From the NCBI GenBank assembly GCA_041661625.1, contig JBAZUB010000001.1, positions 523,504 through 587,503 on the forward strand: a stretch of 64,000 nt of DNA. The letters are read 5' to 3'. Below the pieces are notes generated by a model that worked only from the letters and a program-made list of their open reading frames with translations, did no database searches and was not told the DNA's origin. The position numbers were made by a program, and so were the translations under genes. This document shows positions 14,242-62,975 of the stretch, piece after piece (the first letter of the stretch is position 1; every line of letters starts with the position of its first letter). This DNA is from Patescibacteria group bacterium (GTDB lineage Bacteria > Patescibacteriota > Patescibacteriia > JAHIZJ01).

Positions 14242-14774
14242 ATCGACGGTTCCGGGGTTCCTGATCTGGTACTCGGGCATCGTATTTCAATCGCAAGGGC
14301 GGATGAAGCACGATGCTCTTTTTTTATTATTATATCGCTTTAGCCTGACTGCTTATTTTACAAAAGTTGGCCCGCTCTTGACATTGTATACAGGTAGTAC
14401 TAAGGTGGAATCAAATTGAATATGTGAGGCGATGAGCTATTGTCTGAATCTGGTCGCTTTCCCTATATAATTGCTAGTCTAAAGGCTTTTATGGAGGGGC
14501 GGACAATAGGGAGCTAGTAGCGAAACCGACACGATTCCACTCGATCATCAGCCTCAATTCGTTGAGGTTTTTGTGTAATATTAGGCATTTTCTCAAGCAT
14601 CCTAGTCTTATCCGAATACAAACCTCGGGTGAGACGGGGTGCTGGAGGGAAACCCGACAGCACCTTGACAACCTGTTTGACAAACATCCAAGTGATAGTA
14701 AAGTTCTGCACAACTGCCGATGGGAATACATCTCAGCGGCCATCCGGTCCGTCCTGATCGAAGGAGGTCTTGTC

Positions 14775-29743: not shown

Positions 29744-30114
29744 ACTAGTGCTACAGAAAAGTCGGGGTTTTCAAACAAAACCGTTTAGTATTAACCGGGG
29801 AGACAACATTTGACCCAAGGTTAACCACCATCAGTTCCTTTGACCGCTCGGAGAAAAAACAGGGGTATCAAATCATATTGGGTATCACTGTTTTTTCTTC
29901 GCCCTACGCCAAGGCTACGGGCGACACTGTCCCCCGTACTTTTTGCGAAGTGCTACCGAAGAAAAAATGCACGTTGACAACCGAAAAGTGATAAGAAAGG
30001 CTTCAATCAATTCAATTCCGTCTCCTCAACCGCTTCTCACGAACGGTTTGAGCGAGACAACAAGAAATAATAGAGCTTCATTCCTTAAACGGAATGACAC
30101 TCTCTCATTCTAAT

Positions 30115-31727
<1,613 letters not shown>

Positions 31728-31947
31728 AGGGAGAAAAGTCAGTACCGACGCGCAAGCGCCTGGTACTGACCAACCCCGTTACCTCGGTGGGTAACGGACC
31801 CTATAAAAGGGTCGATGCATGGATCATCTTCGGATGATACATGTCACTGCCTTTCTTATCACCTTTCGGAATGTCAACCCCCGTCAGTCGCGACTGACGA
31901 GGTTAACAAACCTAGTACCCCCGTGGTACTGGGCAACAAACAACATT

Positions 31948-33576: not shown

Positions 33577-33718
33577 TATGGCAATAAACTAGAATGTGTT
33601 CTATTATCATGAAATAGCTAACCCGGACAATACCGACCCTTGTCAAATATACTATTTTCTGCTAAATTGTGATAGTCACTAAATGGCTTTTTTCAAATAT
33701 ATTATTAATTCGGGCGAT

Positions 33719-33790
33719 TAGTCCCGATGTCCCGTTGCGGGAATCGGGATCCCGATCGATTACGAAGTAATCGCATCGGGACTCAGGTCG
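33719..33790 (+). repeat. tRNA-Ile 5'-end fragment (gggcgattag...ctcaggt) interrupted by a ~58-bp palindromic mini-element (TIR tcccgatg/catcggga; core atcgggatcccgat)
   Basis: gggcgattag + tcccgatgtcccgttgcgggaatcgggatcccgatcgattacgaagtaatcgcatcggga + ctcaggt. A related element lies at 57346-57400. Confidence 0.45.
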
Positions 33791-33833
33791 TGAGGCGGCG
33801 TAAGAAAGGATCATTAAATAATTGAAATTGTAA

Positions 33834-33869
33834 GGGCGATTAGCTCAGGTGGTTAGAGCGCGTCACTGA
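33834..33869 (+). pseudogene. exact copy of the 5' half of tRNA-Ile(GAT), nt 1-35, ending within the anticodon
   Basis: gggcgattagctcaggtggttagagcgcgtcactga is identical to the 5' 36 nt of the intact gene at 33929. Confidence 0.7.
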
Positions 33870-33928
33870 CCCGCCTGCCGAAGTAGGGAGAACATTGCCA
33901 GATAAATAGCTGAATTCGCTACCCTCAT

Positions 33929-34005
33929 GGGCGATTAGCTCAGGTGGTTAGAGCGCGTCACTGATAATGACGAGGTCCCAGGTTCGAGTCCTGGATCGCC
34001 CACCA
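33929..34005 (+). tRNA. tRNA-Ile (anticodon GAU), CCA encoded
   Basis: Cloverleaf: acceptor gggcgat/atcgccc, D-arm gctcaggtggttagagc, anticodon arm cgtca-ctGATaa-tgacg, T-arm ccagg-ttcgagt-cctgg, discriminator A, CCA. Confidence 0.9.
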
Positions 34006-34045
34006 GAGCGAAGCAGTTATTTATAGCGTTCGTACGGCGGGCAGG

Positions 34046-34086
34046 TAATGACGAGGTCCCAGGTTCGAGTCCTGGATCGCCCACCA
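34046..34086 (+). pseudogene. exact copy of the 3' half of tRNA-Ile(GAT), nt 36-76 incl. CCA
   Basis: taatgacgaggtcccaggttcgagtcctggatcgcccacca is identical to the 3' 41 nt of the intact gene; together with 33834-33869 it reconstitutes a full tRNA. Confidence 0.7.
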
Positions 34087-34108
34087 GCCTACGCCAAGGC
34101 TTCGTCTG

Positions 34109-34240
34109 GCGGGGCCATGTCTAGGTAGCTCAGCTGGGCCACGCAAAGCGGGGCGGGCAGAAGCGAACAAGCCCGCAGGGCGCCGTAAGCATCGACTGCT
34201 CAGAGCAGTAGCAGGTGCTGCCCCGGAAGAGCGAAGGAAA
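34109..34240 (+). pseudogene. degenerate tRNA-Phe-like D-arm fragments flanking a GC-rich structured insert
   Basis: gtctaGGTAGCTCAGCTGG ... ccggaaGAGCGAAGG resemble nt 5-19 and 22-30 of the downstream tRNA-Phe. Confidence 0.3.
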
Positions 34241-34266
34241 ATTATTTTAAAAAGTACTGACAATAA

Positions 34267-34342
34267 GCCGAGGTAGCTCAGCTGGTAGAGCGAAGGACTG
34301 AAAATCCTTGCGTCGCCGGTTCGATTCCGGCCCTCGGCACCA
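34267..34342 (+). tRNA. tRNA-Phe (anticodon GAA), CCA encoded
   Basis: gccgagg-ta-gctcagctggtagagc-g-aagga-ctGAAaa-tcctt-gcgtc-gccggttcgattccggc-cctcggc-a-cca. Confidence 0.9.
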
Positions 34343-34393
34343 GAGTTTTTTTGAATGAACCCAAAGTATAAGCGATCGTTGGTAGTATGATAA

Positions 34394-34470
34394 CGGGGTG
34401 TGGCGCAGTTGGCTAGCGCGCCTGCTTTGGGAGCAGGAGGTCGAGGGTTCAAGTCCCTCCACCCCGACCA
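34394..34470 (+). tRNA. tRNA-Pro (anticodon UGG), CCA encoded
   Basis: cggggtg...cctgc-ttTGGga-gcagg...gagggttcaagtccctc-caccccg-a-cca. Confidence 0.85.
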
Positions 34471-34482
34471 GCTGTATATACT

Positions 34483-34592
34483 ACCGGTCAGCGCAGTTGG
34501 ACTTGGAAACAGGAAGTCGAGGGTTTCCGCCCAAGGCGGACCACGAACCCGCTGTGGCTCGCGGCAAGTCCCTCCACCACGACCAGCTGTAT
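34483..34592 (+). pseudogene. degenerate tRNA-Pro-like copy with 40-nt insertion in the T-arm, bounded by direct repeat accagctgtatatact
   Basis: gtcgagggtt[tccgcccaaggcggaccacgaacccgctgtggctcgcgg]caagtccctccaccacgacca; the 16-nt direct repeat is also found at the 3' end of tRNA-Pro (34467-34482). Confidence 0.45.
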
Positions 34593-34713
34593 ATACTCCC
34601 GGTTAAGGCAGTCAGACGGGATCAGGCGGTCATAGTAGATTACGTTTTATTATACCTCACTACAATTGAAATGTGGAGTGTTGTAATTTTCAAGCAAAAC
34701 AGTTTGCCAGCCT

Positions 34714-36011: not shown

Positions 36012-37631
36012 ATGTTATCAAACGATACCAAACCAAAAAGAGACAACGTGACGCGTTGTTTTTTTATTGTCGATCGTAAACCAAATAGTTTACTTTTGTA
36101 TGCAGTCACTGTTGTGATGATCGGTTTTGTATTTATTTTAACTAACCGTCCCACGCCAGCCAAAGCCGATACGACTCCTGTAATTGACTATGCTCCTAGT
36201 GCCATACAGAACGGTCAGATTGTAACCATTAACGGAACTGGGTTTGGAGTAAAAAGCCCGGTCGAACCCCTACGTTATGACGACTTCCAAGACGGGACGA
36301 TCGGACAACGTATAAATGATCAGGCCAGTGGCGGATGGTTTACACAAGCATTCGTGCACTACCCGTACTATTCAACCGAGTCACAACGCGTTATGGGCGA
36401 CGTCGTTGCTACCCAGCATTATGACGTAACCGACTACAACCAAAATATAGGTTTGCAAGAAATAAACCCGCCCTATAAGCACATGTACACTAGCATGTAC
36501 ATCCACCGGGACGACATCAGCGGTGATGCCAAATACAGCACCAATGTAAAGCTTTGGAGCAGGTTCGAAGCCGATGCGGGTGATTATATTTACCTTCCTC
36601 AAGCCCGCTGTGAGTCCCAACCCAGCAATGGACAGGGCCTCATGGTCGGATACGACCGCAATCAGATTGCCTCATGCAGTACCTGGTATGATATGTCACC
36701 CTGGTGGGAAAACGAGTTCTCGGGTTGGGTGCGTTCGGAAAGATACATTGATGCGGGGACTATAAATGGCAACGATTGGGTGCAGTGGTTTCGTGAAGAT
36801 TTACAGACCGTATCAGAAACGGGTCCTGGATGCGGTAGTCTTTTAGTGACTCCCCTCGATCTTAGTATGCTATATATCGGCAACTATTGGCGAGCTGAAA
36901 ACGCTCAGCAGGAGTCTAAAACATATACCAGCGAACTTTATGTGGACACCACCCAAGCCCGTGTCGAGATCGGCAATACCTCAACCTGGGATACGAACAC
37001 TCATCGTGAGATTCAAATACCCCACACCACTTGGAATGACGACCAGATTCAATTCACCGTCAACCAAGGCACTTTCACCGACGGTGAGTCGGCCTACCTC
37101 TATGTGGTAGATGAGAATGGAGTGGTAAATACCACCGGTTATCCAATTACTTTCGGGGGTATCGCCTCAAATATTCCCCCGGTTTTAGCCAGCATTGGTA
37201 ATAAGTCTCTTCATGAACAAGAGACCCTGACGATCAACGTGTTAGCTTCAGACGATGATCCGGAAGATACGCTGACTCTGTCAGCTTCCAATCTTCCTAC
37301 CGGCGCTACTTTTACAGATAATGATGGTGGATCGGGTGCCTTCTCTTGGACACCGACCGATCAACAGGCCAATATATATTCTAACATACACTTCGAAGTC
37401 ACGGACGGAACCGACACGGATACCGAAGATATTACTATTACCGTATTGGATGGAGCGGCTGACTGTACTCCGGCCTGGGATTGTTCGAATTGGTCTGTTT
37501 GCGCTGATTCGATTCAAACCCGATCCTGCCATGATGACAACAATTGCGGTTCCGATGCCGGACGGCCGGTGGAATCGGCCGAGTGCGACAGTACGGCACC
37601 GGGGGCGGCGGTAGATTTGGTGGCTAGTTAA
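36012..37631 (+). CDS. secreted adhesin-like protein A: signal/TM, IPT/TIG domain, variable middle, cadherin-like (putative Ig) domain, Cys-rich TSP1-like C-terminal module
   Basis: VTINGTGFG (IPT); ...LASDDDPEDTLTLSASNLPTGATFTDNDGGSGAFSWTPTDQQANIYSNIHFEVTDG (dystroglycan-type cadherin-like); CTPAWDCSNWSVCADSIQTRSCHDDNNCG. Confidence 0.7.
   Translation: MLSNDTKPKRDNVTRCFFIVDRKPNSLLLYAVTVVMIGFVFILTNRPTPAKADTTPVIDYAPSAIQNGQIVTINGTGFGVKSPVEPLRYDDFQDGTIGQRINDQASGGWFTQAFVHYPYYSTESQRVMGDVVATQHYDVTDYNQNIGLQEINPPYKHMYTSMYIHRDDISGDAKYSTNVKLWSRFEADAGDYIYLPQARCESQPSNGQGLMVGYDRNQIASCSTWYDMSPWWENEFSGWVRSERYIDAGTINGNDWVQWFREDLQTVSETGPGCGSLLVTPLDLSMLYIGNYWRAENAQQESKTYTSELYVDTTQARVEIGNTSTWDTNTHREIQIPHTTWNDDQIQFTVNQGTFTDGESAYLYVVDENGVVNTTGYPITFGGIASNIPPVLASIGNKSLHEQETLTINVLASDDDPEDTLTLSASNLPTGATFTDNDGGSGAFSWTPTDQQANIYSNIHFEVTDGTDTDTEDITITVLDGAADCTPAWDCSNWSVCADSIQTRSCHDDNNCGSDAGRPVESAECDSTAPGAAVDLVAS
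36951..37603 (+). repeat. copy 1 of ~653-bp segmental duplication (3' 500 bp 100% identical to copy 2)
   Basis: Direct comparison with 38500-39151: ~10 substitutions in the first 150 bp, none thereafter. Confidence 0.85.
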
Positions 37632-37634
37632 AAT

Positions 37635-39173
37635 ATGTCGAGCTTAAACCATAAAAACATCTTAAGAATATTAACACTGATATTTTCTATTGTCGGTAGT
37701 GTTTTTGTTTTGTTTAATTTTCCAACACGGGCTAAGGCGGATACGACTCCTGAAATAATCTTTATGCCTAGTACCATACAGAACGGTCAGAGCGTGACGA
37801 TTAATGGAAGTGGGTTTGGGATAAAATATCCGGTTGAACCAACAAAATGGGATACATTTGACGTTGGTTTAAACGAGGCCCTCCTAGGCTCTACCCAGCC
37901 TGAGTGGATAGCGTTTCAGCAAGGCGGGGCTAAATATGATAGCACATATTATCATAGTGGCCCTTTTTCAGTCGGTAATAAGCTCACCCCAGAATCACAG
38001 TGGGCAACAAATTATTTTCAATTCACACCCACGGATAACATATTCGTTTCTTATTGGTGGCGCACCGCTTACACTGATATCGACGACTATGGCATTACAA
38101 AACTAACCAGAATAACATCAAGCCCAGCCGCAGGTGGAGAAGGTATTTATGACGGGGTCGGCACAACAGCTCTGACCAATATGAATCCACGGTATAATTC
38201 AATACCGTATCTGTTTTATCAAAACACTAGCAGTCCCGTTGCGCCACCATTAGCCGAACTTACCGTTCCTTATAACGAATGGGCGCGAATCGACACCCAC
38301 ACCAAACGTTCGACGGCTGGAGTTTCCGATGGTTCTGTTATGACGGAATGCGTCGGCCATGACATTCATGCGCTGATATCGCAAGAGAACTGCTCAATCG
38401 GATATGACTATCATTGGGACACAGTATTACTTGGTCTGATGGCGGCAAATGTCGCTGGATATTATGAACTGTACTTAGATGACATCTATATTGACACTAC
38501 CCAAGCCCGTGTCGAGATCGGCAATACCTCAACCTGGGATACGAATACCCATCGTGAGATCCAAATACCCCACACCACCTGGAATGACGACCAGATTCAA
38601 TTCACCGTCAACCAAGGTACCTTCACTAATGGTGAGTCGGCCTATCTCTATGTGGTAGATGAGAATGGAGTGGTAAATACCACCGGTTATCCAATTACTT
38701 TCGGGGGTATCGCCTCAAATATTCCCCCGGTTTTAGCCAGCATTGGTAATAAGTCTCTTCATGAACAAGAGACCCTGACGATCAACGTGTTAGCTTCAGA
38801 CGATGATCCGGAAGATACGCTGACTCTGTCAGCTTCCAATCTTCCTACCGGCGCTACTTTTACAGATAATGATGGTGGATCGGGTGCCTTCTCTTGGACA
38901 CCGACCGATCAACAGGCCAATATATATTCTAACATACACTTCGAAGTCACGGACGGAACCGACACGGATACCGAAGATATTACTATTACCGTATTGGATG
39001 GAGCGGCTGACTGTACTCCGGCCTGGGATTGTTCGAATTGGTCTGTTTGCGCTGATTCGATTCAAACCCGATCCTGCCATGATGACAACAATTGCGGTTC
39101 CGATGCCGGACGGCCGGTGGAATCGGCCGAGTGCGACAGTACGGCACCGGGTATTGTATCCGACCTCCGATAA
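37635..39173 (+). CDS. secreted adhesin-like protein B (paralog of A; same IPT N-terminus and identical cadherin-like + Cys-rich C-terminus, different middle)
   Basis: Starts 4 nt after the A stop; the C-terminal 220 aa are identical to A except D->N. Confidence 0.7.
   Translation: MSSLNHKNILRILTLIFSIVGSVFVLFNFPTRAKADTTPEIIFMPSTIQNGQSVTINGSGFGIKYPVEPTKWDTFDVGLNEALLGSTQPEWIAFQQGGAKYDSTYYHSGPFSVGNKLTPESQWATNYFQFTPTDNIFVSYWWRTAYTDIDDYGITKLTRITSSPAAGGEGIYDGVGTTALTNMNPRYNSIPYLFYQNTSSPVAPPLAELTVPYNEWARIDTHTKRSTAGVSDGSVMTECVGHDIHALISQENCSIGYDYHWDTVLLGLMAANVAGYYELYLDDIYIDTTQARVEIGNTSTWDTNTHREIQIPHTTWNDDQIQFTVNQGTFTNGESAYLYVVDENGVVNTTGYPITFGGIASNIPPVLASIGNKSLHEQETLTINVLASDDDPEDTLTLSASNLPTGATFTDNDGGSGAFSWTPTDQQANIYSNIHFEVTDGTDTDTEDITITVLDGAADCTPAWDCSNWSVCADSIQTRSCHDDNNCGSDAGRPVESAECDSTAPGIVSDLR
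38500..39151 (+). repeat. copy 2 of ~653-bp segmental duplication
   Basis: See copy 1. Confidence 0.85.
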
Positions 39174-39319
39174 AGCAGTTATAAATTACATTAAATCAAT
39201 CTGGGCATATTTTACCGATGGGGCTATTTAAGGTACAATGTTTAACCATCAGGACTACGATAAGATAATCATATAGTACCCAACTATCGAAACATGGAGC
39301 CAAACAACAAACGAATTCA

Positions 39320-41116
39320 ATGATTCAAGTATTAATAAAAACAGTGTCAAAAAAACCTCGTATCGTACTTGTGGTACTATTTGTCACACTAAGCTATGTA
39401 ACGATATTGCATAATACTCCTCAAGCTCGTGCAGACGCGTCTACCTACTATGTTCGGCCAACTGATTGCAGCGATGATGGCTCAGGATCATCGAATTTGC
39501 CTTACTGTACGATTCAGAAAGCGGCCAACACTGCCCGGGCGGGCGATACGGTTCTTTTGTACGACGGCATATACCGCTCGAGTACGAATACCACCTTCTC
39601 ATATTCCGGGACGGAATCGCAACCTATTACATTTCGGGCAATTGGAGACGGTGCCATCTTAACCGGAAACGTGCCGCTGGATGAATCATTGTTTCAAAAA
39701 ACTGCTGGCTTCACTTCGGTCTATGAAATAACTGAAGCGCAAATCCCCGCTTCCGCTTATTACCAGGGTGTGTTTGATATTGTAAGAAGCGGACTCGTCC
39801 AGCTAGACGGGCAGTCGGTGTATACCGGATATCGAAGTGACCAGTTTAATAATATCCTCCACGAAAACTCCGCCGTACCAGTAGCTAACATAGCCGCGGT
39901 CGACTCGACAACTTATTCGTGGTACTTCGATACCGAATCGCGCAAACTCTACATCCATACCCGCGAGGGTGACGCCCCGACCACACATGAGTGGGAAGTT
40001 AATCGACCTTTTGGAGGACGATTTCTCACGCTGGCGGCGTCGGTAAAGAACCTGGTGTTTGATGGTCTCATATTTCGCTATGCCTCGATCTATTTTGGTA
40101 ATAGAGGTAATGAAAATATTACCGTGCAAAATTTCGAAACCATAGGATCTGGAATGTCGATCGACGGAGGGGCAATCAATGTGACCTTCCAGAACTGCCA
40201 TATTCACGATACGCTGGTGGCGGTCAATGCGGGATATGACGGGTTGAATGTTTCGGAAAGTACGGGTGCTAAAATAATAAACTGTGTGATAGAGCGTGGC
40301 TGGAATAATATCCAGTGGGGCAATAACACTAACACGTTATTTGACCGGGTAATTTCACGCGATTGCCCAAATCATCCTATGAATGGATCGAACTCAATAA
40401 ATATGAGCGTGTCAAATTCTATCATCTTGCGTGGCCAAGAAGGTTTTTATATCCACGGCGATGTTGGTATGACCATTGGGAATTCATTGTTTTCTAGTTT
40501 ACTCATGGAACGTAGTTCAAATTATGAGTGTCGCATTCCCAATCAAATCACATTAAGAAATAATATTTTTAGTGGCTACTATATAAACGCCGTTGATTGT
40601 CCGGCTTTCACTTGGGCGGAAGTTCTGCTCGATTCCGATGATAATTACTTTCTTCCCACTGATGGTCCAGACTCCAACTGGCTCGCGCAGACCGGTTGGT
40701 TTGAGATCTGTCATACTACCCAAGACACACTTACGATCTGCCAGGGTATAACCGGACAGGACATGAACTCGCGGACAGCCGACGGAACACCGCTTTGGAC
40801 GGATTGGACAAGTGATAACTTTCATCTGCTTTCAGGCGCGCTCGTTGTAGATACTGGCGTCAACGTTGGTAATTCTCATGATTACGATAATGTCCCGCGT
40901 CCCAAAGGTGCTGGTTTCGATATTGGCGCTTTCGAATACGACCCCAATTGCACTCCCAACTGGTGGTGCACCAATTGGTCGGTGTGTGCTGATTCACAAC
41001 AAACCCGATCCTGCCATGATGATAATAATTGCGGTTCGGATGCTGGCCGGCCTGTTGAGTCAGCCGATTGCGATAGCACGGCGCCAGGGGTAGTGGTAGA
41101 TTTGATGGCCAACTAG
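39320..41116 (+). CDS. secreted right-handed beta-helix (pectate-lyase-fold) protein C sharing the Cys-rich TSP1-like C-terminal module of A/B
   Basis: Signal peptide; parallel beta-helix repeat pattern (NxxxxNCxIHD, GxxNxxxxNC); C-terminal CTPNWWCTNWSVCADSQQTRSCHDDNNCGSDAGRPVESADCDSTAPGVVVDLMAN ~80% nt identical to A's tail. Confidence 0.65.
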   Translation: MIQVLIKTVSKKPRIVLVVLFVTLSYVTILHNTPQARADASTYYVRPTDCSDDGSGSSNLPYCTIQKAANTARAGDTVLLYDGIYRSSTNTTFSYSGTESQPITFRAIGDGAILTGNVPLDESLFQKTAGFTSVYEITEAQIPASAYYQGVFDIVRSGLVQLDGQSVYTGYRSDQFNNILHENSAVPVANIAAVDSTTYSWYFDTESRKLYIHTREGDAPTTHEWEVNRPFGGRFLTLAASVKNLVFDGLIFRYASIYFGNRGNENITVQNFETIGSGMSIDGGAINVTFQNCHIHDTLVAVNAGYDGLNVSESTGAKIINCVIERGWNNIQWGNNTNTLFDRVISRDCPNHPMNGSNSINMSVSNSIILRGQEGFYIHGDVGMTIGNSLFSSLLMERSSNYECRIPNQITLRNNIFSGYYINAVDCPAFTWAEVLLDSDDNYFLPTDGPDSNWLAQTGWFEICHTTQDTLTICQGITGQDMNSRTADGTPLWTDWTSDNFHLLSGALVVDTGVNVGNSHDYDNVPRPKGAGFDIGAFEYDPNCTPNWWCTNWSVCADSQQTRSCHDDNNCGSDAGRPVESADCDSTAPGVVVDLMAN

Positions 41117-56456: not shown

Positions 56457-56705
56457 TACACACCTTAATTTAGGCTCTGGCCGGTGTCACCCACTATGTA
56501 ATTACTACAGGCGTTTGACGAGAAGAGTTTCGCTGGTCGGCCCTACCGACCCCGGACTCTGATCCGGGGGAACCGGTCTCCAGGGTCTCGCTGGCCACAC
56601 TTCGCTAAAGTTACGCGTGACACCGCTCGACCCGTCTAAGCTCTCGTAGACTAAAGCAGTTCAGTCTACTCGTGGCTAAGACCCTCCGCGTTGTCCCGAT
56701 AGTTT
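56457..56705 (-). other. structured non-coding region downstream of tRNA-Ala (unassigned; possible small RNA)
   Basis: 250 nt without an ORF; several stable hairpins (gtagact...agtctac; ccccgg...ccgggg; ggtcgg...ccgacc). I could not match it to 5S, SRP, tmRNA or RNase P consensus by eye. Confidence 0.2.
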
Positions 56706-56708
56706 GGG

Positions 56709-56781
56709 TGGACCCTACCGGGCTCGAACCGGTCACCTCCGCGTTGCAAACGCGGCGCTCTACCAAATGAGCTAAGGGCCC
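56709..56781 (-). tRNA. tRNA-Ala (anticodon UGC) with G3:U70
   Basis: gggccct-ta-gctcatttggtagagc-gccgcg-ttTGCaa-cgcggag-gtgac-cggttcgagcccgg-agggtcc-a; flanked by inverted repeat cgatagtttgggtgg/ccacccaaactatcg. Confidence 0.85.
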
Positions 56782-56791
56782 ACCCAAACTA

Positions 56792-56920
<129 letters not shown>

Positions 56921-57118
56921 TCATGGTCTATGCAAACGTGTTGTTTTACTGCATCTCTATTATGTTGGGCCAAACGTTTATCGCTATCTTCAGCACTACC
57001 AATATAGTACCGTCTACTATCGACCGACTGTTATATGTATGTGTCGTACATGTCGTCGCAAAGTATCGGAACAAACGCGATGCCCCGCCTGCCACGACGG
57101 CATGCCGGGCGGGTCTAC

Positions 57119-57140
57119 CAGCTGAGCTAACGGCCCGTGA
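57119..57140 (-). pseudogene. tRNA 5' fragment (gggccgttagctcagctggtag) followed by GC-rich hairpin
   Basis: 19-22 nt identical to a tRNA acceptor + D-arm start; no complete cloverleaf follows. Confidence 0.3.
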
Positions 57141-57298
57141 TCCTGTTGTTACTCATTGCTAAGATGCTTTGGTTGATATAACTGCGAGAACCTGGGCGGG
57201 TCGGTCAGAGACATCGCCCCGCCCGTCTCAGCCGTCGCGACACAAGCGGTTGTGTCGCTCCCCGCTTACAGCGGTGACGGCTTCGACCCAGCTGAGCT

Positions 57299-57318
57299 AA
57301 CGGCCCAAGTTGTTGTTC
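57299..57318 (-). pseudogene. second copy of tRNA 5' fragment (gggccgttagctcagctggg)
   Basis: Same 19-mer as 57119-57140, 180 nt away, again followed by a long GC-rich structured insert. Confidence 0.3.
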
Positions 57319-57345: not shown

Positions 57346-57400
57346 TCAGATGAATCCCGATGTGGCTATAGGCCAATCGGGATCCCGACTCCCGTCATCG
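57346..57400. repeat. small palindromic element related to the one at 33729-33786 (TIR tcccgatg/catcggga, core atcgggatcccga)
   Basis: tcccgatgtggctataggccaatcgggatcccgactcccgtcatcggga. Confidence 0.4.
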
Positions 57401-57411
57401 GGACGTCGAGA

Positions 57412-61610: not shown

Positions 61611-61679
61611 TTATCCTTGGTGGGCGATAGAGGAATCGAACCTCTGTCCGGGGTGCGCCGGTCAGAACAACGGCACACC
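61611..61679 (-). pseudogene. tRNA 3'-end-derived fragment (T-arm + acceptor atcgccc + CCA) fused to a repeat also found at 62750-62781
   Basis: Minus strand: acgggtgtgccgttgttctgaccggcgcaccccggacagaggttcgattcctctatcgcccacca. The acceptor 3' strand matches tRNA-Ile (gggcgat). Confidence 0.4.
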
Positions 61680-61756
61680 CGTCGTGGCCCGCGCAAAGGC
61701 AAGCAGTTGCCTTTGCTTGTCACCACAACCCTCCACAACCCGCCCGCCAAAGCTTG

Positions 61757-61830
61757 TGGGCGGCACAAGAGTTGAACTTGTGACCTCCACAATGTCAATG
61801 TGGCGCTCTAACCAACTGAGCTAGCCGCCC
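61757..61830 (-). tRNA. tRNA-Val (anticodon GAC)
   Basis: gggcggc-ta-gctcagttggttagagc-g-ccaca-ttGACat-tgtgg-aggtc-acaagttcaactcttgt-gccgccc-a. Confidence 0.85.
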
Positions 61831-61846
61831 ACAAGCGGCGCGCGGG

Positions 61847-61884
61847 TGTCAATGTGGCGCTCTAACCATCTGAGCTAACCGCCC
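61847..61884 (-). pseudogene. duplicated 5' half of a tRNA-Val (ends in anticodon loop) 17 nt upstream of the intact gene
   Basis: Minus strand gggcggttagctcagatggttagagcgccacattgaca, i.e. nt 1-37 of a Val(GAC) tRNA, then diverges (cccgcgcgccgcttgt). Confidence 0.55.
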
Positions 61885-61942: not shown

Positions 61943-62581
61943 TCAAGCCCCCAGTGGAATGACGTGTTCGCGAATTACTCTTGCATAATCGTGACGCGAT
62001 TTATCATACGCGTACAGTCCGATAACTACCTCGTTAGCCACAAATGATTTGCCTCTCAGCGTACGGGCTTCCGCTTGGATTCGAGAAACATGCTTATACT
62101 GAGCCGTGACACTACCCAGCGTTACATGAGGATGAAACCGACTACCGACACGTAAATACCCGTATTTTAGTATCGCTTTAATTTCTATCGGTGTAAATAT
62201 CTTCTCTCGAATCCGTTGCATATCTTTGCTTCTGATTCGATTCCCGCGCAACTGATTAGCGATTCTGATAATATTCATATGGAATTTTTTTAGCAACGGC
62301 CTCTCGGTTATGCCCAAGCTAATGAATGTGCCCTTACGGTGCGGCGCCAGACGCACTTTGGTTATAGTCAATCGTATTGATTTGAGCTGGGTGCGTATAA
62401 TTTGCCTCTGAAGAATTGGAAAGTCGGTTTGCCTAAATTTAGACAAATATATAGTTACGTGCGGTTCATGCTGAAAATTACCCGGATAAACCAAACCAAA
62501 CGCTTTCTGTATACCCCGAATCTTCTTAGCGATATCAGGTCTAACGTTAAGATGTATACCGAGTACTGTTTCGGTTCTCAT
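61943..62581 (-). CDS. 2H phosphoesterase superfamily protein (LigT-like 2'-5' RNA ligase / cyclic phosphodiesterase)
   Basis: Two H-x-T-x motifs: EPHVTIYL and HPHVTLGS. Confidence 0.65.
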   Translation of the reverse strand: MRTETVLGIHLNVRPDIAKKIRGIQKAFGLVYPGNFQHEPHVTIYLSKFRQTDFPILQRQIIRTQLKSIRLTITKVRLAPHRKGTFISLGITERPLLKKFHMNIIRIANQLRGNRIRSKDMQRIREKIFTPIEIKAILKYGYLRVGSRFHPHVTLGSVTAQYKHVSRIQAEARTLRGKSFVANEVVIGLYAYDKSRHDYARVIREHVIPLGA

Positions 62582-62713: not shown

Positions 62714-62749
62714 GAGTATGTTGATATAAATAGCGGAACCTGGATGCGC

Positions 62750-62781
62750 CGGTCAGAACAACGGCACACCCGTCTCACCCC
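62750..62781 (-). repeat. second copy of the tRNA-3'-fragment-associated repeat (acgggtgtgccgttgttctgaccggcgca)
   Basis: 32/32 identical to 61648-61679; followed by a degenerate T-arm-like sequence. Confidence 0.5.
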
Positions 62782-62902
62782 TCGTAGACGCAAACAGTTG
62801 CGTCTACTTGTGGGTTCGACCCATCTTATATCAGCCTCCGACCTGACATTGATTATTGTGGCTGATATATCAACGACCTCACAATCAGTATTTATCCCGT
62901 GG

Positions 62903-62975
62903 TGGGCGTGGATGGTCTCGAACCATCGACCCCTGCCTTATAAGGGCAGTGCTCTAACCCCTGAGCTACACGCCC
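62903..62975 (-). tRNA. tRNA with anticodon UAU (nominally Ile, AUA-decoding), CCA encoded
   Basis: gggcgtg-ta-gctcaggggttagagc-a-ctgcc-ctTATaa-ggcag-gggtc-gatggttcgagaccatc-cacgccc-a-cca; flanked by extended stem atcccgtgg/ccacgggat. Confidence 0.7.

Follow-up and report, generated by a model that had tools for sequence, protein, structure and literature searches.

Phage T4 reportedly carries the gene of SegB, a free-standing GIY-YIG homing endonuclease, in its tRNA gene cluster, and tolerance of varied target sites is typical of free-standing GIY-YIG homing endonucleases. The mitochondria of the chytrid Allomyces are said to contain double-hairpin elements with conserved stems and variable tips that behave as mobile DNA. 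In Allomyces atp6, a mobile endonuclease insertion reportedly brings its own gene end, and the displaced end is left downstream as a pseudo-fragment. Rickettsia palindromic elements are found in functional genes and have no known linked nuclease. This study concerns a stretch of 64,000 nucleotides (hereafter the window) from the genome of a Patescibacteria group bacterium (assembly GCA_041661625.1, contig JBAZUB010000001.1, positions 523,504 to 587,503), in which tRNA genes are accompanied by tRNA fragments, nested tRNAs and a short double-hairpin element (DHE). The DHE belongs to a family that is tied to tRNA fragments and linked to a gene for a minimal GIY-YIG nuclease. With moderate confidence, we consider that the loci at 33.7-34.6, 56.7-57.4 and 61.6-61.9 kb were scarred by a family of selfish cassettes living in tRNA genes.

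The DHE is made of two adjoining hairpins with the consensus TCCCGAYG-hairpin-RTCGGGA followed directly by TCCCGAY-hairpin-CRTCGGGA, and the window copies measure 57-60 nt. In copy 1 (+ strand) the first hairpin reads TCCCGAT G TCCCG TTG CGGGA ATCGGGA and the second TCCCGAT CGATTAC GAA GTAATCG C ATCGGGA. In copy 2 (- strand, 57411 to 57355) they read TCTCGAC G TCCCG ATGA CGGGA GTCGGGA and TCCCGAT TGGC CTATA GCCA C ATCGGGA. Both copies directly follow tRNA nt 1-10 (...TTAG), fold as two hairpins (z = -3.1 and -2.4) and differ by compensatory changes in the stems. Copy 2 is assigned to tRNA position 10/11, like copy 1, because it stands directly after the tRNA-like 5' end GGTCCGTTAG. An earlier sequence-only reading had noticed copy 1 as a 58-bp palindrome between the 5' end of tRNA-Ile and CTCAGGT; the arrangement held and the length is 60 nt. 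The related palindrome that it had placed at 57346-57400 is likewise real, with its register corrected here.

Beyond the window, the family was sought with the exact pattern TCGGGATCCCGAT-N8-30-CATCGGGA, one genome per species. At least 120 loci matched, against about 6 expected in random sequence by our own arithmetic, so the element is not confined to two places. This number, taken with the tie to tRNA positions described below, excludes the outcome named beforehand as fatal to a mobile element, namely two occurrences as ordinary tRNA leader stems. About 25-30 of the listed matches are chance hits inside G+C-rich open reading frames (ORFs), and 21 matches had no recognisable left arm in a first pass. 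Once duplicates and chance matches were removed, 89 elements remained among the matches listed (87 unique ones and the 2 of the window). The left arm TCCCGAYG is present in these 87 unique and 2 window elements though it lies outside the search pattern, and its invariance is therefore not imposed by the search. Among the matches listed, a tally of record titles gives about 34 loci in Patescibacteria (Kerfeld-, Parcu-, Sacchari-, Kuenen-, Magasanik-, Nomura-, Doudna-, Buchanan-, Berkel-, Gottesman-, Wildermuth- and Daviesbacteria), about 20 in Margulisiibacteriota/Saganbacteria/WOR-1, 7-9 in Omnitrophota and 3-4 in Planctomycetota. A few more come from metagenome-assembled genomes labelled just "bacterium" or "uncultured Gammaproteobacteria". 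Several genomes have at least 3-5 copies. A phage origin was rejected, as 2.9 million viral contigs contained 0 matches. No description of the DHE was found in Rfam 15 or in the searchable full-text literature, including PMC13011429 and PMC1564403; the family is a widespread and apparently undescribed selfish element. A different repeat that shares the DHE core (CTCCCGACCTG TCGGGATCCCGATTTATCCCGATTCATCGGGA) was seen in Poribacteria chromosomes (L084, L091, L092, L105, L109), with conserved flanks in three genomes; it is not beside tRNAs in the stretches read.

Alignment of 37 DHE sequences showed little or no variation in the six outermost base pairs of either hairpin, a switch between C:G and U:A at the seventh pair, and inner stems that diverge freely yet stay paired. 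Over the whole structure, pairing was kept in 97.8% of cells. Two-sided changes in the stems were counted in 113 cells, compared with 30.8 +/- 4.3 in shuffles, none of 500 shuffles reaching 113. The covariation score was 0.348 as opposed to at most 0.104 with slid partners. Four 7-mers (TCCCGAY / RTCGGGA) are kept across phyla whose hairpin tips vary between AT-rich and GC-rich; this favours specific recognition. Being short (46-88 nt), non-coding, present in many copies and bounded by terminal inverted repeats (TCCCGAYG / CRTCGGGA), the DHE resembles a miniature inverted-repeat transposable element (MITE). It lacks a fixed-length target-site duplication: flanking repeats are absent or of variable length (12-63 nt) with spacers. 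The MITE-like activity at tRNA genes suggested by the sequence-only reading is thus a fair description of copies without an ORF, which have discrete ends at tRNA positions, apart from that missing duplication.

The tie to tRNA genes is close. Of the 89 DHEs, 46 lie within 200 nt of an intact tRNA, a zone covering 5.4% of the fetched bases, and 55 have a tRNA-like flank. Junctions cluster at tRNA positions 10-13, 15-20 and 55-59 (D-stem 10/11, D-loop, T-loop). Where a tRNA was present within 400 nt (59 DHEs), the flank matched that nearest intact tRNA itself in 35; 5' fragments are found upstream and 3' fragments downstream of the intact gene, and the DHE may point either way with respect to the tRNA. 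Flanking direct repeats (12-63 nt) were found at 19 of 85 DHEs and at 6 of 400 control positions. One copy of the repeat abuts the DHE exactly, which fixes the element ends at TCCCGA...TCGGGA. Deleting the DHE restores an ARAGORN-detectable tRNA in 4 cases only, each with an intact paralogue of the same anticodon nearby. Identical 51-nt DHE copies in a single Kerfeldbacteria genome, one within a fragment of Ile and one within a fragment of Val, point to recent copying. In place of the site-specific recombination earlier proposed, variable partial duplications of tRNAs flank the element, always with an intact tRNA of that kind next to it, and what survives of that proposal is a repeated element tied to specific tRNA positions. 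Three other identities for the DHE were rejected. As general tRNA processing stems its arms would enclose tRNAs, and they enclose just 2 of 130 intact ones (L037 Val and the window tRNA-Ala). It is no intrinsic terminator, as no T-run follows it, and no integron attC, the arms being TCCCGAY / RTCGGGA and not RYYYAAC...GTTRRRY.

The linked enzyme was traced through all ORFs of the fetched loci with jackhmmer. This gave 24 GIY-YIG ORFs in 21 loci, 13 of them within 16 nt of a DHE and all co-oriented with the tRNAs. In L121 and L010, for example, an 81-aa GIY...YIG ORF lies between the intact tRNA-Val and a DHE-bearing Val fragment, with its TAG stop just before the DHE. Cassettes come in two layouts (tRNA - ORF - DHE - tRNA fragment, and fragment + DHE - ORF - tRNA), and the common gap of about 250-300 nt between a DHE and the nearest tRNA is this ORF. 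The protein consists of the GIY-YIG domain alone (Pfam PF01541, 61.5 bits, cut-off 22.6). Its best solved relatives are the UPF0213 structures 1zg2 and 1ywl, and it belongs to the UPF0213 / minimal Slx1-like branch of the GIY-YIG superfamily. Residues Y6, Y17, I18, G19, R27, H31, N32 and E63 are invariant in the linked family; its Y, Y, R, H, N and E are of catalytic type.

The association was also approached from the protein side by searching for homologues and fetching the contigs of four. In three of the four distinct loci the ORF stop abuts a DHE beside a tRNA and its fragment: tRNA-Val - ORF - DHE - Val(11-76) in L125; fragment + DHE - tRNA-Val(CAC) - ORF - DHE - fragment in L124; and tRNA-Ala(GGC) - ORF running into the DHE - Ala(31-76) in L126-128. 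In the Omnitrophota locus L129 this layout recurs, with another palindrome in place of the DHE. The gene calls of four further homologues extend into the DHE (...SPDV...RDPD). Two other features of L129 (2745-3631) were noted: the tRNA downstream of the GIY-YIG gene is interrupted in its anticodon region by about 380 nt, which may be a group I intron, and the palindrome CCTGCCTGCCGGCAGGCAGG, present in L070 too, divides the 5' tRNA fragment that lies upstream.

The window itself contains a dead GIY-YIG gene. Two in-frame stops and one frameshift interrupt it, and it aligns with the family at all of the invariant residues, every one of which is retained. On one side of it stands Ala-like fragment F3, followed by the CCCGCC hairpin, and on the other tRNA-Ala; this is the fragment-ORF-tRNA layout known from relatives. 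No intact gene of the family was found in the window by tblastn or the family HMM. An integrase or transposase had been proposed as the enzyme to look for. No integrase gene was noticed in the window or the loci, where only a few ORFs were scanned against Pfam and no dedicated test was made, and the enzyme actually linked to the element is the minimal GIY-YIG nuclease (21 loci, and the dead copy here). The likely driver is this nuclease, not an integrase.

What the nuclease cleaves, how the break is repaired and what the hairpin does are inferred from sequence comparison, and the scheme runs as follows. The complete cassette, as it appears in relatives, would be a minimal GIY-YIG (UPF0213, Slx1-like) gene of about 250 nt joined to a DHE of 50-90 nt. 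Its nuclease would break a tRNA gene at one of the conserved stretches (D-stem 10/11, D-loop, anticodon loop or T-loop). Extruded hairpins may be the target instead; Slx1-type enzymes are structure-specific. The four 7-mers of the DHE are probably the site of recognition or cleavage. Recombinational repair would then copy in the cassette together with part or all of a tRNA borne by the donor, whereby an intact tRNA would be rebuilt and the displaced old piece would stay as a fragment abutting the hairpin. Through the conserved D-arm and T-arm sequences common to many tRNAs, the hairpin could move from one tRNA species to another. The order observed (intact tRNA - spacer/ORF - DHE - fragment) would follow if a small unit of DHE and tRNA segment recombined in the Campbell-type or ends-in manner. 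Loss of the ORF would leave MITE-like solo hairpins in tRNA fragments, as in the Ile, Phe and Pro features of the window, and repeated rounds would produce "Russian-doll" nested tRNAs. For a putative homing-endonuclease function of the cassette the signs are indirect: the exact ends, presence and absence among related loci, and identical copies at different tRNAs.

Several points weigh against this account. The rebuilt tRNA keeps the presumed target, and how it escapes cutting is unexplained. Variable duplications of 12-63 nt with unique spacers are not predicted by textbook homing. Within the fetched stretches of roughly 8 kb, an ORF accompanies only about a quarter of the DHE loci. In 9 of 11 cases the spacer at first seemed to have a fixed polarity with respect to the paired hairpins, which the ORF-bearing loci did not bear out. 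Selection of the loci by the DHE pattern itself biases the sample and in part imposes the invariance seen in the centre and the right arm. The Phe, Pro and CCCGCC-type inserts are linked to the nuclease by one window case (F3) and by analogy. More generally, further hairpin families exist beside the DHE (the Phe and Pro inserts, the CCCGCC type, a GACGGG...TGTYCTGAC motif), and the account leaves their nature unexplained. To our knowledge, UPF0213 proteins have no demonstrated homing activity and no DNA-binding domain, and we know of no biochemistry on this system.

Some of the same observations would suit passive palindromes like the repetitive extragenic palindromes (REPs), surviving in dispensable tRNA fragments. 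The fragments would have unrelated origins, for instance duplication by slippage, recombination that followed DNA uptake or the att scars of former integrases, and the GIY-YIG genes would be independent selfish genes that also favour tRNA flanks. Elements were seen in non-essential partial copies only, about a third of copies lack a recognisable tRNA flank, most DHE loci lack the ORF, and several unrelated hairpin families share the same loci, all of which agrees with passive survival. It accounts poorly for fragment ends that coincide exactly with element ends, for 7-mers conserved across phyla despite tips from AT-rich to GC-rich, and for an ORF stop that abuts or overlaps the DHE in many independent lineages, the protein-side loci included. 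We regard passive survival as unlikely, if far from negligible.

Nested tRNAs bring in a different kind of alternative, at the level of RNA. The nested tRNA-Ile unit (33834-34086, + strand) folds as a cloverleaf with the inner tRNA on a long anticodon-loop stem (z = -4.3). The nested tRNA-Val is composed of an outer 5' half (61884-61847), an inner tRNA (61830-61756), a second structured insert (about 61730-61650) and an outer T-arm and acceptor (61644-61618). Its insert ends CCCGCGCGCC...GGCGGGCGGG resemble the Ile insert ends CCCGCCTGCC...GGCGGGCAGG. Nested tRNA-Ile at position 35/36 is also found in L047, with the same CCCGCC...GGCGGGCAGG ends, and in L121, with similar, diverged ends. Other nested tRNAs occur in L116 (tRNA-Phe, at 33/34), L037 (tRNA-Val, the inner gene being inside the second hairpin of a DHE) and L103. 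In the window the outer Ile copy is clean; that of L047 contains one DHE and that of L121 three inserts, and the related Ile of L125 is un-nested. Related Ile-Val-GIY-DHE loci therefore differ in the presence of inserts, from the clean Ile of L125 through the nested Ile of L121 to L010, where Ile is accompanied by a DHE-bearing Ile(11-76). The outer Ile copies of the window, L047 and L121 would look like different decay stages, the pattern expected of decay plus turnover and a point in favour of the cassette account.

On the RNA-level alternative, the double hairpin and the other inserts would belong to working tRNA precursors, either as processing modules or as something like introns. An RNA endonuclease (the GIY-YIG protein is one possibility) would excise them or cut at them, giving spliced or split tRNAs, and the inner tRNA would be freed by RNase P and RNase Z. 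Nested units that fold as near-perfect cloverleaves (z = -4.3 and -8.5), covarying stems and ORFs co-oriented with the tRNAs agree with this. So do the tRNA introns known at position 35/36 in Patescibacteria (PMC13011429, a 2026 survey) and the RNA role suggested for Slx1-like prokaryotic GIY-YIG domains fused to a TrmH-like tRNA methyltransferase (PMC1564403). The host copies, though, are mostly truncated, lack the acceptor strand and stand beside an intact gene of the same anticodon, and the element occurs in both orientations and also outside tRNAs. A group I intron was rejected for the Ile insert, as there is no RF00028 core at E <= 10 and no other Rfam match, the insert follows A35 and not U, and 176 nt minus the 77-nt inner tRNA leave 99 nt. 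An archaeal-type bulge-helix-bulge intron or split tRNA was rejected too: the ends pair as a blunt stem of 7-8 bp that cannot form this structure, and the host copies are truncated and redundant. We think an RNA-level element quite improbable. Most of the evidence likewise goes against a protein-dependent bacterial tRNA intron or split-tRNA system, in which the co-transcribed minimal GIY-YIG protein would remove the inserts, or cut at them, in the RNA and the outer halves would be rejoined or act as a two-piece tRNA. It would best suit the few interrupted genes that are nearly intact, among them the outer Ile and the outer Val of the window and the Val of L016; it is very improbable and, if true, would be of very high interest.

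Movement as REP doublets (REPINs) or palindrome-associated transposable elements by a Y1 transposase encoded elsewhere in the genome, REP-associated (RAYT) or of the IS200/IS605 type, would suit the exact-ended hairpin doublets without fixed target-site duplication, often preceded by NTAG, and the Y1_Tnp gene 112 nt from a DHE in L016, yet it is scarcely credible, since Y1 genes occur in 2 loci as opposed to 21 with GIY-YIG and not in the window, and those of L016 and L112 are flanked by their own hairpins (GGAGAACAGTTCTCC, CGGAAGCCTTGCTTCCG) and not by DHEs. Membership of the REP/REPIN-RAYT systems, where the gene is flanked by the same palindromes, was rejected for L016 and L112 on that ground. 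The RAYT-like genes L016:2254-2961 and L112 (-) represent a second, separate palindrome system in the Candidate Phyla Radiation (CPR), adjoining a DHE in L016.

The features of the window that we ascribe to the selfish cassettes are listed in the table, together with their neighbours.

Table. tRNA-derived and hairpin features of the window (positions counted from its first nucleotide)
Feature	Position	Strand	Evidence or remark
tRNA-Ile 5' fragment GGGCGATTAG	33712..33721	+	exact match to Ile-GAT nt 1-10 (BLAST)
DHE copy 1, 60 nt, at tRNA position 10/11	33722..33781	+	fold z = -3.1; cross-phylum family member
Ile fragment continued, CTCAGGT = tRNA nt 11-17	33782..33788	+	sequence
Outer tRNA-Ile 5' half, nt 1-36, 100% identical to inner gene	33834..33869	+	BLAST
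176-nt insert at anticodon position 35/36, ends CCCGCCTGCC...GGCGGGCAGG	33870..34045	+	carries intact tRNA-Ile(GAT) 33929-34005
Outer tRNA-Ile 3' half, nt 37-77	34046..34086	+	BLAST
tRNA-Phe 5' fragment, nt 5-19 + 21-31, split by insert	34123..34238	+	BLAST, sequence
Degenerate tRNA-Pro copy + duplicated 12-nt downstream flank	34483..34597	+	repeat family D13; downstream of intact tRNA-Pro 34394-34470
tRNA-Ala(TGC) 56782-56705 on 20-bp leader-trailer stem	56694..56812	-	inverted repeat I24
GIY-YIG (UPF0213-type) nuclease pseudogene	~56810..57072	-	tblastn E = 2e-9 to 8e-9; hmmsearch E = 1.9e-7 and 1.1e-6, two pieces
Ala-like 5' fragment F3 57136-57114, then CCCGCC...GGCGGG hairpin 57113-57083	57083..57136	-	BLAST, sequence
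Ala-like 5' fragment 57306-57288, GGGCCGTTAGCTCAGCTGG, then G+C-rich hairpins	57190..57306	-	fold z = -2.4
DHE copy 2, 57 nt	57355..57411	-	directly after tRNA-like 5' fragment GGTCCGTTAG (57421-57412)
Nested tRNA-Val(GAC)	61618..61884	-	BLAST; whole unit folds as cloverleaf, z = -8.5

In every case in the window, a tRNA fragment is of the same kind as the intact tRNA beside it (BLAST of the intact tRNAs against the window). The Phe fragment consists of AGGTAGCTCAGCTGG at 34123-34137 (tRNA-Phe nt 5-19, E = 0.003) and AGAGCGAAGGA at 34228-34238 (nt 21-31), about 30 nt upstream of the intact tRNA-Phe (34267-34342). The pieces of the Phe D-arm around a G+C-rich insert, as first described, were confirmed by sequence and BLAST; the insert (34138-34227) is 90 nt long and folds no better than shuffles (z = -1.2). 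The Pro-like copy proper (about 34483-34585) had been credited with a 40-nt insertion in the T-arm and a 16-nt direct repeat. Both are real, with the insert adjusted to a 39-nt hairpin in the T-loop (34526-34564, between GGGTT and CAAGTCC); the repeat ACCAGCTGTATATACT occurs exactly twice in the window, at 34467 and 34582, against 0.01 expected. The Phe and Pro inserts appear to be the same phenomenon as the DHE but different hairpin modules, with unlike sequences. Homologues of these two inserts among the fetched loci amounted to short matches, probably due to chance. Recurrence in other CPR loci was seen for the CCCGCC hairpin and for one end of the Ile insert, CGTACGGCGGGCAGG.

Upstream of tRNA-Ala, between 57.08 and 57.42 kb, there are three Ala-like 5' fragments, each with hairpins after it. 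The CCCGCC...GGCGGG hairpin family is also present in L064, L007 and L123. The base of the tRNA-Ala stem, TCCTCGAT...ATCGGGA, resembles the DHE arms, and a DHE-like palindrome, ATCGAGGATCCTCGAT, precedes the gene. The sequence-only reading had missed these stems, the Ala-like fragments at 57306-57288 and 57136-57114, the GIY-YIG pseudogene and the nested Val.

Around the nested tRNA-Val, the 3' acceptor strand of the outer gene is Ile-like, which makes the outer tRNA-Val chimeric; CCA is encoded in the outer Val and not in the inner one. A structured repeat of 73 nt (GACGGG-stem-TTGTTCTGAC-stem and a second hairpin) occurs on the - strand within the outer tRNA-Val (61648-61720) and upstream of tRNA-Val(TAC) (62739-62811). 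The copies are 81% identical, and the stem sequence of the second hairpin is wholly exchanged between them (CAAAGGCAAGCAGTTGCCTTTG vs GTAGACGCAAACAGTTGCGTCTAC). A motif akin to this repeat lies at about 57190-57230. Between the two tRNA-Val loci is an ORF (61943-62581, - strand) with a pair of HxT motifs; in Pfam it reaches the 2'-5' RNA ligase / 2H phosphoesterase family at 27.2 bits, a borderline score given the cut-off of 27. A part in a splicing system was considered for this LigT-like gene and dropped, no homologue being present in any other fetched DHE locus.

The window has a G+C content of about 51%, dense coding, nine tRNAs (by ARAGORN and Rfam), one unlinked 16S rRNA gene and one c-di-GMP-II riboswitch. 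At the gathering threshold, Rfam returned only these RNA types over the whole window; at E <= 10 between 33600 and 34720 it returned nothing besides tRNAs, with no family matching the palindrome or the inserts. The stretch at 33.7-34.6 kb has a 100% identical copy in an independent ENA assembly, so its arrangement is not a one-off assembly artefact. A CapA/PGA_cap neighbour gene was of no help as a guide to the orthologous locus, as the closest relative (62% identity) is not syntenic. Long leader-trailer stems occur on most window tRNAs (Gly 13 of 15 bp, Ala 20 bp). A tRNA-Ile with UAU anticodon, rare in bacteria, is encoded at 62900-62975 (-), and its CCA end pairs with the leader, extending the acceptor stem by 10 bp. 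The 16S rRNA gene (30109-31725) measures 1617 nt compared with a model of 1533 positions and is not followed by a 23S gene. Its flanks (29981-30001 / 31849-31869) form a 21-nt inverted repeat, 95% complementary and probably a processing stem, and protein-sized ORFs lie between it and the tRNA cluster. The riboswitch match (14416-14540, +) scores 53.5 bits, exactly the Rfam gathering score, in a CPR genome. Three tandem paralogous genes with Ig-like domains (36012-41116, +) share repeats of 150-300 nt (74-96% identity), and the ENA contig ends there (window position 37603).

If the cassette account is true, a compact selfish element of about 0.3 kb would combine the smallest known GIY-YIG domain with a conserved double hairpin, and in several uncultured phyla would colonise the most conserved DNA to be had, that of tRNA genes. 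It would do no lethal damage because an intact tRNA is always kept. UPF0213, a large family with solved structures and no known role, would gain a testable function and a candidate substrate. In very small genomes the elements may give rise to chimeric tRNA genes and to rearrangements, and a nuclease with a short defined cis-site and self-repairing insertion could interest tool builders. The annotation of tRNAs in CPR genomes is misled by the fragments, the nested tRNAs and the hairpins, which also break assemblies. Two "intact" tRNAs called by ARAGORN, L010:5872-5949 and L125:2789-2866, are false, the last DHE hairpin arm having been taken as the acceptor.

Compared with known systems, the cassettes share with SegB-type genes of T4 a small selfish GIY-YIG gene among tRNA genes, a presumed cut in tRNA-gene DNA and spread driven by repair. 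Unlike Seg proteins and I-TevI, the present proteins (80-100 aa) are the catalytic domain alone, without DNA-binding domains. Unlike SegB they are chromosomal, in CPR and other bacteria with none in viral contigs, and tied to a DHE and partial tRNA duplication. The likeness to the Allomyces elements lies in the two adjacent hairpins and in a presumably displaced gene end left as a fragment; the sequence, the host domain and the target (here tRNA genes) differ. Short, exact-ended palindromic doublets in many copies without a fixed duplication recall REP/REPIN-RAYT systems and IS200/IS605 MITEs; in contrast to REP/REPIN-RAYT, the adjacent enzyme is GIY-YIG and not a Y1 HUH transposase, and insertion sites are within tRNA sequences. 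As with integrative elements that target tRNAs and leave attL/attR scars, a direct repeat of some of the tRNA's 3' part stands after the intact gene. The differences are that no integrase is implicated, the unit is 0.1-0.4 kb, upstream 5' fragments are equally common and a hairpin marks the crossover. The Patescibacteria group I introns (PMC13011429) share the phylum and the same unusual 35/36 site with the tRNA-Ile insert. Finally, as with the Rickettsia palindromic elements, palindromic selfish DNA is tolerated in genes, RNA genes included, of reduced genomes, but the hosts of the DHE are dead partial copies and a nuclease gene is linked to it.

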